A stretch of 44,916 nt of DNA from Longimicrobiales bacterium (lineage in GTDB: Bacteria > Gemmatimonadota > Gemmatimonadetes > Longimicrobiales > Gaopeijiaceae). This document shows, one piece after another, positions 102 to 44,916 of this stretch. The position numbers and the translations under genes were made by a program. The notes beneath the pieces are model-generated. The model was not told the origin of the DNA. It ran no database searches and saw nothing but the letters and a program-made list of their open reading frames with translations. Positions within the stretch are counted from its first letter, which is position 1. Every line of letters begins with the position of its first letter. The DNA lies in assembly GCA_965197725.1 (NCBI GenBank), contig CBDANQ010000007.1, forward strand, positions 1 through 44,916, given 5' to 3'.

Positions 102-775
102 CAGCTCGTCTCGGTGTCCGAGATCGAAGGTTTCCACATTGAGTACAGTCGGTTCAGCCCGAATTGGGTCCAGAACCTGATGACCCTCAGGTCGGCAAAA
201 CCCGCCTTTGTCAGCCTGTCTAGGATTTCCCGATCACGAAGGTAGTAGTCTTCCTCGTCCTCCATGCCGCGCTCCCCGTCCACGTCGTAGCGCGTCCCCA
301 AGAGGCGATCGTAGGCGGCTACGACCTTGTGCACGAGGACCTCGGCCAGCGGGTTGCCCATGGTCACCATGACGTTGCCCCCCGGCCGGAGGCAACGGTA
401 CGCCTCCGCGAGTTCCACATCCCGCAGCGGCTCCGGTACGTGATTGAGGTTGGCGATGAAGGTGACCGAATCGAACCGACCGTCCTCGAACGGAAATCTC
501 GAGAGGTCCCGGAGGACCTGATGCTTCCGGAGCCCGTCTTAAGGGAAGACGTCGATGCCGACGCCGTTTCCGCCGAGGTGCTCGGTCACGAAACGGTTGT
601 GCCTTCCACATCCGACGTCGAGGCAATAGCCCTGCACCTCTCTCCTTACATAGTCGAAGCGCTCGGTGGCAAGCGAGCTCAAACCCCACCGGTCGTCGTG
701 GAAGAGAGTCACGGCTCGCACGGGGAACGACACGAAGTCCTTCAGCTTTTGCATGCCCGTTCGAGGTGCCCGCAC
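101..775 (-). pseudogene. Class I SAM-dependent methyltransferase with an in-frame TAA at 539-541
   Basis: ORFs 539..775 (LDVGCG motif I) and 101..418 (RCLRPGG) share a frame. Reading through the stop gives VFP*DGLRKHQVLRDLSRFPFEDGRFDSVTFIANLNHVP, a continuous methyltransferase. Confidence 0.8.
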
Positions 776-37030: not shown

Positions 37031-38419
37031 ATGGAGGCAAGCAAGCGCCGACGAGCGGATCGAGCTCTACGTCCACAGATGCGTTCACCAGGCCGTCCGC
37101 CGGTGGGACGCCGCGAGCATCGGCAGAGGTTCTGGGAAGAGGTCGCTCGAGGTCTGTCGAGCGAGGAGGCCGCCGTGGCAGCGGGTGTGTCCCCCGCTGT
37201 CGGGGTGCGCTGGTTTCGCGAATGTGGTGGCATGGCACCCCTCAATCTTCGTCCCCAGTCACGGCGCTATCTTTCGTTCGTTGAGCGAGAAGAGATCGCC
37301 GTTCTTCGAGCCCGTGGTCGTGGCGTGCGCGAGATCGCCCGGCAGTTGGGCCGCTCACCCTCGACGATCTCGCGAGAACTGGGGCGAAACGCAGCTACAC
37401 GGGGAGGCAATCTCGAGTATCGGGCCACGACCGCTCAATGGCACGCCGATCGGCGAGCGAAACGTCCCAAGCTTGCGAAGCTCGCTACGAACGGTGAACT
37501 GAGGCAGTATGTACAGGATCGCCTCGGAGGCCTGATCGCGGCTTCAGATGGTACGGCCGTGGCGGGCCCCGATGTGCGCTGGATCGGACGGCGTCGCGGT
37601 CGCCGACAAGACCGGCGGTGGGCGGTCTCGTGGAGTCCCGAGCAGATCGCCAACAGGCTACGGGTCGACTTCCCCGACGATGAGTCCATGCGTATATCGC
37701 ACGAAGCCATCTACCAGGCGCTCTACGTTCAGGGCCGTGGTGCGCTGCGACGGGAGCTGACAGCGTGCCTTCGGACGGGACGCGCGCTACGGGTGCCTCG
37801 AGCTCGCACCCGCGGACGGGGCAAGACGTTCGTTCACCCCGAGATCATGCTCAGTGAGCGACCGGCCGAGGCAGACGACCGCGCCGTTCCCGGGCACTGG
37901 GAAGGCGACCTGATCCTGGGACTGGGCAGTTCGGCGATCGGAACGCTGGTCGAGCGGGCCTCCCGGTTTACGATGCTGCTCCACCTCCCCCGCCTTGACA
38001 AACACGGCGAGCCCAGGACCAAGAACGGTCCAGCGTTGGCTGGACACGGTGCCGAAGCCGTCCGGGACGCGATTGCTTCGTCGATCACGACCCTGCCCGA
38101 GCAACTCCGCCGGTCTCTGACATGGGACCAGGGAACAGAGATGGCTCAGCACGAACGGCTTCGCATCGATACTGGCCTGGCCGTCTACTTCTGCGACCCG
38201 CAGAGCCCGTGGCAGCGCGGCACGAACGAAAACACGAACGGCCTGTTGAGACAGTACTTCCCGAAGGGCACCGACCTCAGCAGACATACCGCTGACGATC
38301 TCGCCGCCGTCGCAGCCGCTCTCAACAGCCGCCCCCGCAAGACCCTCGGTTGGAGAACTCCGGCGGAAACCTTGGAAAATCTGTTGTCATCAAAGGACCA
38401 GACCTCAACCTTGCGTTGA
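37031..38419 (+). CDS. IS30 transposase (extreme C-terminus altered by a 181-bp insert)
   Basis: LGRSPSTISRE HTH, SHEAIYQALY, GHWEGDLI, TWDQGTEM and SPWQRGTNENTNGLLRQYFPKG. Confidence 0.93.
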   Translation: MEASKRRRADRALRPQMRSPGRPPVGRREHRQRFWEEVARGLSSEEAAVAAGVSPAVGVRWFRECGGMAPLNLRPQSRRYLSFVEREEIAVLRARGRGVREIARQLGRSPSTISRELGRNAATRGGNLEYRATTAQWHADRRAKRPKLAKLATNGELRQYVQDRLGGLIAASDGTAVAGPDVRWIGRRRGRRQDRRWAVSWSPEQIANRLRVDFPDDESMRISHEAIYQALYVQGRGALRRELTACLRTGRALRVPRARTRGRGKTFVHPEIMLSERPAEADDRAVPGHWEGDLILGLGSSAIGTLVERASRFTMLLHLPRLDKHGEPRTKNGPALAGHGAEAVRDAIASSITTLPEQLRRSLTWDQGTEMAQHERLRIDTGLAVYFCDPQSPWQRGTNENTNGLLRQYFPKGTDLSRHTADDLAAVAAALNSRPRKTLGWRTPAETLENLLSSKDQTSTLR

Positions 38420-38567: not shown

Positions 38568-39548
38568 AAAACCCTTCAACACGGTACTGTTGCGACGACC
38601 GCTTGAACCTAGGCAGTACACCTCGATCGCCTTCGGCCTACGCTGCAAAGAGGCCAGCGTCCGACCCTCGATGGGCTCGGTCGGCGACGCGTACGATAAC
38701 GCGATGTGCGAGAGCTTCTTCGCCACGCTCGAGACCGAACTCATCGAACGAAAGAGCTTCCGCAATCAGGCCGAGGCCAGGATGGCCGTGTTCGACTTCA
38801 TCGAAGCCTGGTACAATCCCCACCGACGGCACTCTGCCCTCGGCCAATTGTCTCCTCTTAACTACGAAAAGGAACACGCCCCCGCCGCGTGAATCTCTAG
38901 TCCAAAACCGTCCACCGTGCGGGGCCAACTCCAAACGGGGGCTTGGGGAGACTCCGAGCCCAAGCTCCAGCGCGGCCGCTGTCTGATCGACTTTGTGTAA
39001 GGATCGCCCGCCCGAGGGAGTCGTGTTGCCCAGTCCGTAATAGTGGAGGACGTCCAGCCGTGAGATACGGGTCCCGATCGTAAAGAAGACGGAGGAGTTC
39101 TCCCGCTTCAGGCGTCCGTCGATCTCGACCCGTCCTTTGTTAAGGGTAGGTGCGAATGCGCCGCGAACGTCGAAGGCGGAACGATAGGGTCGCTTGCGGA
39201 AGCCGAAGCCCTCCACGTGTGCGCCGCCGCCCAACAAGAGCCCGAGATCCGACGAATAAGTGGTCGCGAAGATCGGAAGGGTCCGTCTGCCCCATTCCCG
39301 CGGCTGATCCCGGTCTTCCTCACTCCACACCCACTCTTCGAAGTGCTTCGTGTTAAGGGACGGCGGATCGGATCCCGAAACCGAGTTCTCGCCCTCGGAG
39401 TCGTAGAGGCGAACGCGGCGTCCTGAATTCTCGAATTCGAAACGATCGTCACCCGGGCCCCCGATCACCCGCACGACCGTGTTCGCGTCGGCGCCGCCAC
39501 GAAAGACGACACGGTCGTCGCCGCCCTTCAGGTAGATCCTGATGGGTT

Positions 39549-41315: not shown

Positions 41316-41832
41316 TGAAGAGCTCGAGAAGGAGACCCAACTCTTGAAGCGAGCGGTGGCCGATTTAACCCTGGACAATCTGATCCTGAAGGAGGCGTCC
41401 AAGGGAAACTTTTGAACCCCGAGCGGCGGAGGCGGTGCGTGGCAGAAGTTCGTCAGCGGTTCGGGGTGAGCGAGAGGAGAGCGTGCAGGGTCTTGGGCCA
41501 GGCCCGCACGACGCAGCGCCGCAGGAGCAACAGAAGTGCGGACGAAGAGGCGCTGAGGGAGGACGTGGTGAAAGTAGCCCGCAGGTTTGGACGCTACGGG
41601 TACCGGATGGTGACGGGGATGCTGAGGACGAAGGGTTGGGTGGTGAACCACAAGCGGGTGGAGCGGATCTGGAGGCAGGAGGGGCTGAAGGTGCCGAAGA
41701 AGCAGCCCAGGCGGGGGCGTTTGTGGTTGACGGACGGCTCCTGCATCCGGCTCCGGCCCTTGTACCGGCACCACGTCTGGGCCTATGACTTCGTGGCGGA
41801 TCGGACCCACGACGGTCGGCGGCTGAAGATGC
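41316..41832 (+). pseudogene. Truncated IS3-family (IS407-group) transposase remnant
   Basis: OrfA tail KELEKETQLLKRAVADLTLDNLILKEASKGNF* with GGGAAAC; OrfB start VSERRACRVLGQ...YGYR...VNHKRVERIWRQEGL...WAYDFV; the rest of the DDE domain is absent. Confidence 0.85.
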
Positions 41833-41964
41833 GCCCTCCGACGATGGGAAGACCAGACCGCCGCCGCGCGGCTACCCCCCGCCGCCGCTTCTTTCCGTGC
41901 TACACGCCGGGCGCCGGTGGGATTCCAGCCTTTTGGGTCGTGGTTGGAGGGACCGGATGTTTCC

Positions 41965-42900
41965 TCACACCAGGCGTAGCAGCGAGAGCGTCTTGAGAGC
42001 CTCGTTGATCTTCACGACCGTAAAGTTTTCCCTGCGGAGCTTGGCGCGCCATGCGTCGTCGGTCTTGATCAGATCCATCACCGTGTCGGGCGTGATTTCT
42101 CGGTCGTCAACCTGGCTGCACACCGAGTGGACGGTCGTTAACGTCTCTAGCTCGCATTCGTCGAATCTGCGGAGTTTGTCGATCAGTGCCCGTGCAACCA
42201 CTTCCTGACGGACGTACCGAGCCGCATAGCTTGCTGCCTGGGAATGTTTCGGCCCTGGCCGAAGGAGTTGGTCGGCCCCCCTGACGAGGTAGCCCTTTTT
42301 CAGGCATCCGGGCTCAGCGTCGCGGTAGGTCAACGAGGGGTCGTATGGCCCAAACCGATATTTGGTGTGCTTCCGGAAGACACCAAGTTGGAGGCCATTC
42401 TCCAGAAGGTAGGCTACCTTTTGGGCACGCATTCTGGAAACACCCTGACCGCCGTCGCCCGACAGAATGCCAGTGATCCAGCCATACACTGCGATCCGGC
42501 GAAACGTGACCGGAGCCTTCCCCCGAAACGAGTACGAACTACTGCGTAACCGCTCCATCTCGGCACCGATTGAAGCCAGTTGCCTCTCAGTTTCGCTATC
42601 CGGTCGTTTCAGCCATTCCGGGCCCAGCGAGGCAGCTAGACAGAGGTCACGCACAGCCTCCTGTTCAATGGCGTCAAGTCGTGGTTCCCCTCGGTCTTCG
42701 CCGAGGCCCAACTCGGCAAGCGGCGTGGAACTGACCAGGATGACCCAGTAGTCCAGAAGGGTCTCGCGCGCTTCGGGGGCCTCGCGCACATAGGCTGCAA
42801 TGTCTGGCTTGATGCCTGCCTCGAACTCGGCCAGCATCCGGGCTTTGAGGGCGTCGACGGTTGTCATCGGTAGTGTCCCGAAGATGTTGCGCCCATTCAC
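41965..42900 (-). CDS. Hypothetical two-domain protein: putative anti-sigma-like N-terminus plus DarG-C/SocA-like C-terminus
   Basis: GTGA coupling to the sigma gene; N-terminal DIAAYVREAPEARETLLDYW helix; C-terminal RAQKVAYLLE...YRFGPYD...LETLTTVH pattern. Confidence 0.55.
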   Translation of the reverse strand: MNGRNIFGTLPMTTVDALKARMLAEFEAGIKPDIAAYVREAPEARETLLDYWVILVSSTPLAELGLGEDRGEPRLDAIEQEAVRDLCLAASLGPEWLKRPDSETERQLASIGAEMERLRSSSYSFRGKAPVTFRRIAVYGWITGILSGDGGQGVSRMRAQKVAYLLENGLQLGVFRKHTKYRFGPYDPSLTYRDAEPGCLKKGYLVRGADQLLRPGPKHSQAASYAARYVRQEVVARALIDKLRRFDECELETLTTVHSVCSQVDDREITPDTVMDLIKTDDAWRAKLRRENFTVVKINEALKTLSLLRLV

Positions 42901-43589
42901 AGGTCTAGGAGGGCGCGAAACCGTGGAATCTTCTTCAGCCGCTCTCGTGCGTTCCGAAGATGTCTGTGAACCATAGCGGGGCTGATTCCCATGACTTCTG
43001 AGACCGATTCGGGCCCAGAGATCTGTCTACGCTCGATCCACCTGAGGGTGGCCGCCGCCGCTTGGCGGGGCGGCAATTCAGAGATGATCTGTTGAAGTGT
43101 CTCACGGTCAATGCGATCCGCTATCTCCACCGACAGGTCGCCTCGATCAAGTCGGCTGGTTTTCTCCGATACATCGTGGACGGAAACGGTCGCCTCCGGA
43201 AGCTTCGCCCGGCGCCTGCGGATCGCATCGAGACAGCGCTGCTTGTACGCGCGTCCGAAGCGTTCTTCCCAGAAGGTGGGTTTCTCGCTGGTAGCGGCTT
43301 GGAGGGCCACGAACATGTCGCGGATCCCCTCGGAGTGGACATCCTTACGGTCTTCCAGACGTAATGCCCATGAGACCGACTCCGCGATGGGGCGGGAGCG
43401 CTCCAAGAGGTGTGCGGCTGCGGTCTCAGTTAGTTCTGGGTGACGGTCGCCAAGGGCCTTCCGGACTAGGAATGCCAGCGTCTCCAGCGTCAGGTGACGA
43501 CCCTCCCTGCGGACCGCAATCATGCGATCCGTTGGATTGAGTGTGCAGAGCCGCTCGATCTCCGCCTTGGACTTCGCTGGGCGTGCCAG
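42897..43589 (-). CDS. Divergent sigma-70/ECF-like RNA polymerase sigma factor (start uncertain)
   Basis: Region-2-like YKQRCLDAIRR and region-4 LPPRQAAAATLRW...SVSEVMGISPAMVHRHLRNARERLK. The ORF is open to 43772, but that overlaps the Ubl gene; a CTG after GAGG at 43589 is a tentative start. Confidence 0.7.
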   Translation of the reverse strand: MARPAKSKAEIERLCTLNPTDRMIAVRREGRHLTLETLAFLVRKALGDRHPELTETAAAHLLERSRPIAESVSWALRLEDRKDVHSEGIRDMFVALQAATSEKPTFWEERFGRAYKQRCLDAIRRRRAKLPEATVSVHDVSEKTSRLDRGDLSVEIADRIDRETLQQIISELPPRQAAAATLRWIERRQISGPESVSEVMGISPAMVHRHLRNARERLKKIPRFRALLDL

Positions 43590-43740
43590 TGGTCTTCCTC
43601 GGTGTGTTGGGCCGCTACCCAGATAACCGGAGCGAGCCCTCGGAACTGTAAACCCTGAAAGTCCGAGTTCACACTTCTCCGTCCGGAATCCGATTACACC
43701 AATAGCGACGCCGAAACCCCTGGTACATAGGAGAGACGCC

Positions 43741-43983
43741 ATGACGACGACCATGACCCAGAAGACGATCACGATTTACATTGATCAACAGAAGTTCGAA
43801 CTCGAAGCGGGCAAGTACGCCGCCACCCAGCTCCTTGAGCTTGCGGGCGAGGACCCGTCTCAGACGATTCTGGTGCTGAGAACTGGCGACGATCTCGAGC
43901 AGCTGAAGAAGGATTCCTACTTCGAGCCAAAGCCCGATGCCCGCTTCGTCGTGTTTCACTGCGACCCGACTCCCGTCTCGTGA
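43741..43983 (+). CDS. Ubiquitin-like (multi-ubiquitin-domain family) small protein
   Basis: AGGAG RBS; 80 aa beta-grasp pattern ITIYID..F....YAATQLLELAG......LV......QL......F; coupled to E2 and JAB-E1 genes. Confidence 0.75.
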   Translation: MTTTMTQKTITIYIDQQKFELEAGKYAATQLLELAGEDPSQTILVLRTGDDLEQLKKDSYFEPKPDARFVVFHCDPTPVS

Positions 43984-44357
43984 TCTTTGGCCCGGATCGT
44001 CTTCAGGCGGACCTCGCTACGATCGGCTTCCATGCACAGCGTGTCTCTGCGCACGACGGGACCACTTTCGTGGTGATCCCGAACTTCGAGGTGCCGTGCG
44101 GACGCTTCGTAGGACGCGTTATCGACCTGGGACTGCAGGCGACCCCCGACTTTCCGCTCACTATCGCCTCCGCAATCCATGTGCGGTCTGACCCACACCT
44201 GCTGGACATCGCGGACACCGTCCCGGGAAGACGTAACATCATCGAAAGTGCCTTGGGGCCAGACTGGCGCTACTGGAGTCACAACCTTGGCTGGTCGGAC
44301 CCAAGGACCGCACGGCGGCTCATTTCCAAAGTGAACAAGGTGTTCGAGGGTGCTTGA
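43980..44357 (+). CDS. Prokaryotic E2-like (family E) conjugating protein
   Basis: FVVIPNFEVPCG, PDFP and WRYWSH motifs; GTGA overlap with the Ubl stop. Confidence 0.72.
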   Translation: MIFGPDRLQADLATIGFHAQRVSAHDGTTFVVIPNFEVPCGRFVGRVIDLGLQATPDFPLTIASAIHVRSDPHLLDIADTVPGRRNIIESALGPDWRYWSHNLGWSDPRTARRLISKVNKVFEGA

Positions 44358-44916
44358 AGTCAACTCGGCTGCGATGTCGACATCCCTCGCTGGGGCATTG
44401 CATGGCCCCCTCGTCCGAGATGACGGGCAGGAGGATCTGACATTCGCGTTGTGGTACCCCTCGGAGGGAATGAACCGGAAGACCGCCCTTCTCTTCCGCT
44501 CCATCCGGCCGGGACCAGGCGACCGCGAGATTCACGGCAACGTCAGTTTCAACCCGGGCTACCTGCAGCGCGCCTTGGAGGAGGCGCTCCGGCACCGGGC
44601 TGGGCTAGCATTCCTCCATAGTCATCCGTTTCCGGGGTGGCAGCACATGAGCGAGGACGATGTCGCGGCCGAGCGCCGAATCGCCCGTGCGGGGTGTGCT
44701 CTGACCGGACTGCCCCTGATCGGGATGACGACCGGAAACGATGGTACGTGGAGTGCGAGGACCTGGGTTGCGGAGACGGACAAACCGGAGCCGCGCATGT
44801 CATGGCTTCCGGAAGTCCGGGTCGTTGGAGAGGCTCTCCGCGTGTCACGCGTGCCCCGTTCTCCACGTCCCGAGCGGAAGGCCGAAACGCTGATTCGAAC
44901 TGTGGCCGCTTGGGGT
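44350..44916 (+). CDS. JAB/JAMM peptidase fused to ThiF/E1 (partial, runs off window end)
   Basis: Missing from the ORF track. Manual translation gives 189 open codons with GQED (Glu28) and LAFLHSHPFPGWQHMSEDD (HxH..S..D), ending in RTVAAWG, which resembles the start of a ThiF/E1 domain. Confidence 0.8.
   Translation, partial: MLEVNSAAMSTSLAGALHGPLVRDDGQEDLTFALWYPSEGMNRKTALLFRSIRPGPGDREIHGNVSFNPGYLQRALEEALRHRAGLAFLHSHPFPGWQHMSEDDVAAERRIARAGCALTGLPLIGMTTGNDGTWSARTWVAETDKPEPRMSWLPEVRVVGEALRVSRVPRSPRPERKAETLIRTVAAWG

Follow-up and report, generated by a model that had tools for sequence, protein, structure and literature searches.

A conserved C-terminal serine in place of glycine in the ubiquitin-like protein of a Bub-like bacterial conjugation cassette

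The DNA analyzed here (the window) is a complete contig of 44,916 bp, CBDANQ010000007.1 from a Longimicrobiales bacterium, and it ends in a three-gene ubiquitin-like protein (Ubl) conjugation operon that encodes, in order, a Ubl, an E2-like protein and a fused JAB peptidase-E1. The cassette is Type I Bub-like (6E.1) and belongs to an undescribed branch without BubE. Type I Bub is exemplified by BubAB-BubCD-BubE of Citrobacter sp. RHBSTW-00271 (Ye, Gong, Chambers, Corbett; bioRxiv 10.1101/2024.11.21.623953). The Ubl of the window ends in Pro-Thr-Pro-Val-Ser (PTPVS) rather than in glycine; this end is real and under protein-level selection, far beyond chance. Judged from the sequences, from structure models and by analogy to Bub proteins, the Ubl is probably made in mature form, with Ser80 as its functional C-terminus and with the E1 adenylating the Ser80 carboxylate by Bub-type chemistry. 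We regard as evenly poised the broader proposition that this is a widespread, uncatalogued branch of Ubl conjugation, with members in Gemmatimonadota, Acidobacteriota, actinobacterial plasmids and soil metagenomes, which dispenses with the C-terminal glycine rule. Its E1 would adenylate, and its E2 conjugate, a Ser-ended tag (Ala-, Val- or Thr-ended in sister groups), and BubE would have been lost along with the glycine, the fused JAB domain being the sole peptidase and having Val-Ser specificity. The genes of the cassette are as follows.

43741..43983, forward strand: Ubl gene, encoding an 80-residue single beta-grasp protein of the BubA/multi-ubiquitin kind with a PTPVS-stop end, as judged from the open reading frame (ORF) list and an AlphaFold2 (AF2) model
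43960..43983, forward strand: codons of the Ubl tail C74-D75-P76-T77-P78-V79-S80 and the TGA stop (tail codons alone, 43960..43980)
43980..44357, forward strand: E2-like gene, BubB-like, encoding 125 residues from a GTG start, with the invariant Ser100 in WRYWS
44350..44916, forward strand: 5' part (189 codons) of the JAB/JAMM peptidase-E1 fusion gene, which is cut by the contig end

The Ubl has the sequence MTTTMTQKTITIYIDQQKFELEAGKYAATQLLELAGEDPSQTILVLRTGDDLEQLKKDSYFEPKPDARFVVFHCDPTPVS, and its C-terminal end is given as ...FVVFHCDPTPVS or ...ARFVVFHCDPTPVS. An earlier sequence-only reading of this DNA had described a Ubl without a terminal glycine, with its last glycine at residue 49 of 80 and a tail of C-D-P-T-P-V-S, and the ORF translation bears this out: the only glycines are G24, G36 and G49, leaving none within 31 residues of the end. 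The GTGA overlap that it reported is likewise present at 43980..43983, where the Ubl stop (TGA, 43981..43983) overlaps the E2 start (GTG, 43980..43982). The further claim that this overlap fixes the stop did not hold, as relatives keep the stop position with any of three stop codons and with other overlaps or spacers.

Conservation of the tail was examined at two levels. A search of 5.8 billion clustered proteins returned 21 homologs at 45-96% identity, every one of which has TPVS as its C-terminal end, so that Val-Ser is terminal in 22/22 when the window protein is included. Residues F69, V70, V71, F72, H73, T77, P78, V79 and S80 are invariant among these 22 aligned Ubls, and PTPVS is the best-conserved stretch in a 57-sequence Ubl alignment whose mean column identity is 34%. 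At the gene level we compared 61 related loci, comprising five genome loci (Longimicrobiales, another Gemmatimonadota genome and two Acidobacteriota) and 56 metagenome loci; the latter were fetched with a pattern containing ...PTP and are thus a biased sample for tail frequency, the unbiased view being the profile search described below. The frame stops directly after PTPVS in 60 of the 61 loci, counting PTPAS in L063, and the sole exception (L062) runs on with SNVRS after the tail. The Ubl is followed by the E2 in 60/61 loci and next by the JAB-E1 in 55/61, the contig ending first in the others. The sequence-only reading had proposed asking whether PTPVS-stop is conserved and co-occurs with this E2 and JAB-E1; in these loci it is and does.

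Codons were compared across 50 distinct gene sequences, taken from the window and from 60 loci (all but L062). Each residue of P-T-P-V-S is kept in 49-50 of the 50 genes, yet it is encoded by four synonymous codons each for Thr, Val and Ser and by three and four for the two prolines. The stop codon is TGA in 40 genes, TAA in eight and TAG in two, always at the same position. The E2 of relatives begins at a GTGA, ATGA, TGATG or TAATG overlap or after a spacer of 4-18 nt, in the -1, the +1 or the same frame relative to the Ubl, and sometimes behind a Shine-Dalgarno-like GGTGAGG. This variation in stop codons, start frames and spacers indicates that Ubl and E2 are translated separately and that the stop position is independent of the overlap. 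The idea that the tail is conserved as a by-product of an E2 ribosome-binding site is ruled out by the turnover of synonymous codons and by retention of the motif in fused proteins.

The Ubl and E2 might instead be one BubAB-type gene that was split by a sequencing frameshift or is joined by programmed frameshifting. Many Type I Bub operons do have Ubl and E2 fused, Table S1 of the preprint also listing split forms (bioRxiv 10.1101/2024.11.21.623953); the E2 frame of the window is -1 relative to the Ubl, and five fused relatives were found. Against this stand the stop kept in 60/61 independent loci with three stop codons, the differing E2 frames and spacers, and the lack of an evident slippery site in the window sequence. 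These rule out a frameshift, an assembly error or programmed joining, and we give such an artifact virtually no credence. Gly-ended homologs, a frameshift and an assembly error had all been named by the sequence-only reading as counting against it; the homologs are not Gly-ended and no error came to light.

The AF2 model of the Ubl has a mean predicted local distance difference test score (pLDDT) of 83.8, with strands at residues 9-14, 17-22, 42-48, 51-54 and 67-73 and a helix at 28-34; the tail C74-S80 is free beyond the last strand. Its best structural matches are the bacterial multi-ubiquitin proteins 8u38 (Z 10.8), 9d5b (Z 10.7) and 9cd2, together with Citrobacter BubA (9ea8_B). The match to BubA(155-229) of 9ea8_B, in its complex with BubCD, has a Z of 8.2 and a root-mean-square deviation of 2.1 Å over 71 aligned residues. 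Foldseek matched the model to the multi-ubiquitin fold at E 1.3e-04, and the Ubl family profile matches multi-ubiquitin PDB chains at E 2e-04. Pfam Multi_ubiq scores 15.3 bits on the window Ubl, below its cut-off of 24.5, a precomputed PF14452 match exists for 6 of the 21 homologs, a search of the Ubl sequence against the PDB gave no match, and neither did tblastn of the Ubl and of an Ala-ended relative against plasmids. Type I Bub Ubls carry one to three multi-ubiquitin beta-grasp domains, and in the solved Citrobacter complex Gly229 of BubA sits in the E1 adenylation site (bioRxiv 10.1101/2024.11.21.623953). As residues 9..79 of the Ubl model align with BubA 155..229, the tail of the Ubl is predicted to reach about as far as this glycine. 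The model also upholds the earlier argument that JAB trimming cannot expose a glycine in this protein, as G49 lies in the turn between the two core strands 42-48 and 51-54 of the predicted beta-grasp.

A profile search of 1.84 billion representatives yielded 110 cluster representatives, which were realigned. Half of them (55/110) end exactly at ...[V/I/L/T]-S, and a further 13 end at the same place in Ala (10), Val (2) or Thr (1). Six carry one to four variable extra residues after Val-Ser (D, LR, CK, HEA, NGQ and DGRP), and five continue in frame into the E2, reading PTPVS/FFGPERF, /DGVSFGADRL, /DFGLQRL, /MLYGPDRL and PTTVS/FSGYGEQRF, where the slash follows the tail. For 30 the profile match stops short of the tail, their ends including GGVA, GGAS, GGVS, APVA, GKAS and SNVS and also the canonical ...PYG, ...ATFG-R and ...ATYG-SS, and one (P0089) is without a local match. 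Ubl precursors show such a pattern at their processing site: the end is constant, and what comes next is a stop, a short variable stretch or a fused E2. This argues that the serine is the mature end. A hidden Ubl glycine in the [FY]-G that follows the serine of fused relatives is unlikely. This glycine corresponds to the invariant G4 that caps the first E2 helix (pLDDT 93), which places [FY]-G in the E2 fold, and where the two genes are separate it belongs to the E2 product. The canonical relative from Bradyrhizobium ends aromatic-Gly (...PPATFG, followed by HGNH), so that a hydrophobic and then a small residue are common to canonical tails and to the Val-Ser or Val-Ala tails of the branch.

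Published accounts hold that all Bub operons encode BubE, a DUF6527 serine protease, and the published catalogue is restricted to operons that contain DUF6527 (bioRxiv 10.1101/2024.11.21.623953), so the Ser-ended branch falls outside it. We found no DUF6527 among six proteins of L002, 15 proteins of L003-L005 or the proteins of the window's own genome (88.9% complete). Nor was it found in 51 downstream ORFs from 20 loci or in 87 upstream ORFs from 26 loci, in a scan where ORFs were picked greedily (at least 60 residues downstream, at least 80 upstream) and a small or overlapped gene could be missed; the 51 were drawn from 70 listed downstream ORFs, duplicates and loci already scanned being left out. 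Of 63 matching plasmid records, seven were looked at, picked by hand and not at random. DUF6527 is annotated alongside the Gly-ended Bradyrhizobium Ubl and a Methylomagnum BubAB fusion, and is absent from the annotation beside a truncated fusion on pKAZ5 and beside the Ubls of Clavibacter (...GGVA), Nocardioides (...CAPVA), M. avium (...RADVA) and Haloplanus (...GSGRS). The link between BubE and a glycine end is drawn from these few annotated examples and from the published catalogue. The proposal of the sequence-only reading that this Ubl may define its own subfamily is well supported by the large Val-Ser clade with its Val-Ala, Val-Val and Val-Thr sisters, by the single E2 type, by the JAB-E1 fusion and by the finding of no BubE beside the members examined.

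The contig end truncates the window's E1 at residue 189, suggestive of an assembly break in a repeat-rich, mobile region, and the remainder of the gene was not found elsewhere in the same assembly. Over residues 1-189, a 463-residue protein of locus L002 shares 85% identity with the fragment. E1 features were accordingly read from full-length relatives of 463-517 residues, with L002 numbering. The L002 protein contains a ThiF domain (E 1.2e-36), and its best solved relative is Citrobacter BubCD (E 3.8e-18); more distantly, the E1 also matches MccB chains in the PDB (E about 1e-06). The JAMM residues E28, H90, H92, S101 and D104 are invariant in 25/25 E1 sequences, as are the GxGxxG loop, R240, K253, D299, two Cys pairs and the crossover-loop Tyr Y373 (in DDPSYL). 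The only invariant cysteines form the two pairs typical of a zinc site, leaving no free catalytic Cys. This matches BubCD, which lacks a catalytic Cys and uses crossover-loop Tyr370, while its partner BubB uses Ser333 (bioRxiv 10.1101/2024.11.21.623953). A sulfur-carrier role like that of ThiS/MoaD is not favored: E2 and JAB always accompany the Ubl, a scan of the L002 proteins showed no sulfurtransferase domain on the E1, and the neighbors are defense genes. All 25 E1s of the branch also have Arg-Pro directly after the catalytic Asp (C-V-D-R-P, L002 297-301), where Citrobacter BubCD has C-V-D-T-Y; from this sequence difference, the Arg-Pro might help to shape a pocket suited to a non-Gly end.

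Pfam Prok-E2_E scores 18.9 bits on the window E2, below the cut-off of 25, and 31.5 bits on the L005 relative, above it. The AF2 model of the E2 (pLDDT 93.8) is a small alpha/beta fold whose first helix (4-14) begins at G4. Six residues (G4, H67, N86, W99, S100 and N102) are invariant in a 42-sequence alignment, and the WRYWS motif (W-x-x-W-S) that contains Ser100 matches the W-Q-R-W-S-R-H of canonical Bub fusions at the same place. In the GC-rich locus L003 (7694..8611) the E2 frame runs uninterrupted through 305 codons, covering the entire Ubl gene, which is read in a different frame; an artifact of base composition is the simplest explanation, and gene callers could be misled into an over-long E2.

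The catalytic residues of E1, E2 and JAB are constrained and the Ubl is the only conserved candidate substrate, which makes ordinary Bub chemistry on the Ser carboxylate the most economical model. The seven-residue tail would thread into the E1 adenylation site, where the alpha-carboxylate of Ser80 would be adenylated with ATP. The invariant crossover-loop Tyr (Y373) would take the Ubl as an oxyester, from which it would pass to the invariant E2 Ser100 and then to a target nucleophile. In relatives with an extended or E2-fused Ubl the JAB domain would cut after the serine, much as in Citrobacter, where the BubAB fusion is cleaved by the JAB domain behind its conserved Gly229 (bioRxiv 10.1101/2024.11.21.623953), and it probably also removes conjugates, BubE being absent. 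Adenylation of a C-terminal Ser by the E1, raised as a possibility by the sequence-only reading, is consistent with all that was seen: with the invariant catalytic residues, with the BubA-like reach of the tail and with the extensions and E2 fusions that begin after the serine.

A different possibility is that the Ubl is never conjugated and acts as a non-covalent subunit or regulator, PTPVS being a docking peptide that, for example, occupies the JAB or E1 active site and gates the enzymes on another substrate. The lack of a glycine at or near the end would fit this, a strictly conserved tail would also be expected of a binding epitope, and the E1-E2 of the Type II cyclic-oligonucleotide-based antiphage signaling system (CBASS) can act on a substrate other than a beta-grasp protein. 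The loci offer no other conserved candidate substrate, however, as the Ubl is the sole beta-grasp protein of the cassette and the genes after the E1 differ by locus; natural extensions and E2 fusions after the serine suggest that a free Ser carboxylate must be produced, and BubA, whose tail has about the same reach, is adenylated. We consider a non-conjugated Ubl unlikely. We hold it very improbable that the serine side chain is what matters, after or instead of adenylation, through an N-to-O acyl shift at Val79-Ser80 or an MccB-like processing of the adenylate. Of the 68 representatives whose sequence terminates at the motif, 55 have serine as the last residue; Bub pathways already proceed through oxyesters (bioRxiv 10.1101/2024.11.21.623953), and the E1 has MccB among its PDB relatives. 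Sister groups nevertheless have Ala, Val or Thr in the last position, so that a hydroxyl is not required across the family, and the E1s retain the full set of ATP-binding and Tyr residues of an ordinary Bub E1.

Several points weigh against adenylation and conjugation at Ser80. The characterized E1-E2 cascades described in the literature available to us, including Bil and Bub, use a C-terminal glycine, and the branch is known from genes, alignments and models. Confidence in the Ubl model is lowest in the tail, the last ten residues having a mean pLDDT of 71. The likeness of the E2 to BubB is modest: the top Foldseek match of its model is Citrobacter BubB (9eae_C, E 0.019, TM 0.62), with eukaryotic E2s following in the list, searches of the PDB with the E2 sequence and the E2 profile gave no BubB match, and where BubB has His335 accompanying its catalytic Ser (S-x-H), the E2s of the branch have an invariant Asn. 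Finally, some distant relatives end in GG-Val-Ala, GG-Val-Ser or GG-Ala-Ser, and a simple ungapped count that starts at the last strand makes the tail as much as two residues longer than in the Bradyrhizobium Ubl, which raises the possibility that Val-Ser is trimmed.

Val-Ser would then be a conserved pro-peptide, with JAB trimming deeper (e.g., after Pro78 or Thr77) and the E1 activating a new, non-Gly end. The GG-containing ends, found in P0059, P0072, P0122 and the Clavibacter plasmid, place the GG roughly at Thr77-Pro78, and the JAB motif is invariant even though most Ubls of the branch need no trimming after the serine. Removed pro-peptides are normally variable, though, whereas in this branch conservation is highest at the last two residues and variation begins after them; terminal Ser or Ala recurs across very different tails (GGVS, GGAS, GKAS, SNVS, TTRS and PTPVS), which suggests that the last residue itself is used; and activation at a C-terminal Pro would be no more orthodox than at Ser. 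Deeper trimming is, in our estimation, distinctly unlikely, and Ser80 remains the preferred site of activation.

Two genes lie upstream of the Ubl on the opposite strand and complete the local picture.

42897..43772, reverse strand: helix-turn-helix (HTH) protein with a sigma-70 region 4-like C-terminus, divergent from the cassette; the longest ORF is given, and the true start is probably further downstream
41965..42900, reverse strand: 311-residue protein of unknown family, co-transcribed with the HTH protein, without a Pfam match

The HTH protein (Pfam Sigma70_r4_2, E 9.3e-06) has homologs upstream of the Ubl, on the opposite strand, in 31/61 loci, and the 311-residue protein has homologs in 26/61. 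The L002 homolog of the latter gives a weak PADLOC match to DarG (E 2e-06), and we take the protein to be Panacea-like in appearance. The divergent pair recurs in L002-L004, L010-L012, L014-L016, L018-L020, L024, L026-L030, L032, L035-L039, L047 and L050 and is the most frequent upstream content; type I restriction-modification genes also occur there. The HTH protein is likely a regulator of the operon, and it and its partner of about 310 residues may be an undescribed controller pair, the counterpart of CapH+CapP or CapK+CapS in other Bub operons. Such pairs do occur in the collection: L005 (6119..7365), L043 (681..1858) and L045 (2630..3731) carry a CapH+CapP-like pair of an XRE-type HTH protein and an M78/IrrE peptidase, and L057 (4068..5521) a CapK+CapS-like pair of a histidine-kinase-like ATPase and a STAS-like DUF4325 protein.

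The genes after the E1 vary by locus and include a type III methyltransferase, DarT with a glycohydrolase, integrases, HTH-M78 proteins, a SMODS domain, AbiEii, a dCTP deaminase-like protein and an HD protein; no fourth gene common to the loci was found downstream of the E1. A small DUF3892 protein directly follows the E1 in L005 (9489..9833), in the identical copy of L006 and in L061 (8124..8414), the L005 and L061 proteins being 74% identical, and is not present in the others examined. The cassette is sporadic, occurring in 6 of 301 sampled genomes of the phylum, the window's own included. Judged from the neighboring genes, it may serve in phage defense or a stress response. Just upstream of the cassette in the window are ORFs that by eye resemble insertion-sequence transposases, at 37031..38419 (462 residues), 38590..38892 and 41412..41996, the latter two shorter and apparently fragmentary.

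The tags of this branch, with their Ser, Ala, Val or Thr ends, are natural and strongly conserved, and their partner enzymes keep every catalytic residue, so that the supposedly universal glycine rule of ubiquitin-type chemistry becomes testable through them. If the tags are conjugated, glycine would be a habit of the known systems rather than a chemical necessity, and the E1 and JAB pockets would show how specificity for an end that bears a side chain is built, knowledge of use in engineering orthogonal tagging systems. The Bub family would also extend beyond its DUF6527-based catalogue, linking BubE presence to Gly-ended tags. In addition, about half of the loci offer a new candidate regulator pair upstream.

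In comparison with known systems, ubiquitin, ThiS/MoaD, SAMPs and Bil-type Ubls share with the window's Ubl the beta-grasp fold, a flexible tail and a ThiF-family partner. All of these, as far as described, are activated at a C-terminal Gly, for which a narrow E1 channel is the usual reason given, and the Ubl described here departs from their Gly or Gly-Gly end, its last glycine, G49, lying inside the fold. MccB is a ThiF-family E1-like enzyme that adenylates a non-Gly C-terminus, that of the MccA heptapeptide; it makes a peptide-nucleotide antibiotic and is not known to work with an E2, a JAB or a beta-grasp substrate. Literature searches that did not extend to the Bub paper in its 2026 form or to the 2011 6E survey returned no description of a Bub-like or multi-ubiquitin tag with a non-Gly end.

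Cassettes annotated as "multiubiquitin domain-containing protein" with ThiF on actinobacterial plasmids (Clavibacter pCCa, Nocardioides pCHL and Mycobacterium avium pP7a) resemble the branch in having a JAB-E1 fusion (37-39% identical to the L005 E1), a non-Gly Ubl end and no DUF6527 annotated within 3-3.5 kb. They differ in their last residue, which is Ala, and in their E2, which belongs to another type and carries a PPHW-H-L motif. One genome (G124, contig C3) has two Bub-like cassettes about 8 kb apart (L070 and L075), one of the PTPVS type and the other with a Ubl that has an N-terminal PKPEEK repeat and ends in ...TTPVV and an E2 with a PPHWLHL motif.

Type I Bub is the known system that the cassette resembles in most respects. 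Like Type I Bub, it has the gene order Ubl, E2, JAB-E1, a multi-ubiquitin beta-grasp Ubl, and a JAB-E1 of equal length and architecture with a crossover-loop Tyr and no free catalytic Cys, as well as CapH+CapP-like or CapK+CapS-like regulators upstream in some loci and defense-island surroundings. Unlike Type I Bub, where Ubl and E2 are fused in many operons, the branch usually encodes them as separate genes; no BubE was found with it, and its Ubl ends in Val-Ser where that of Type I Bub ends in aromatic-Gly (G229 in Citrobacter).

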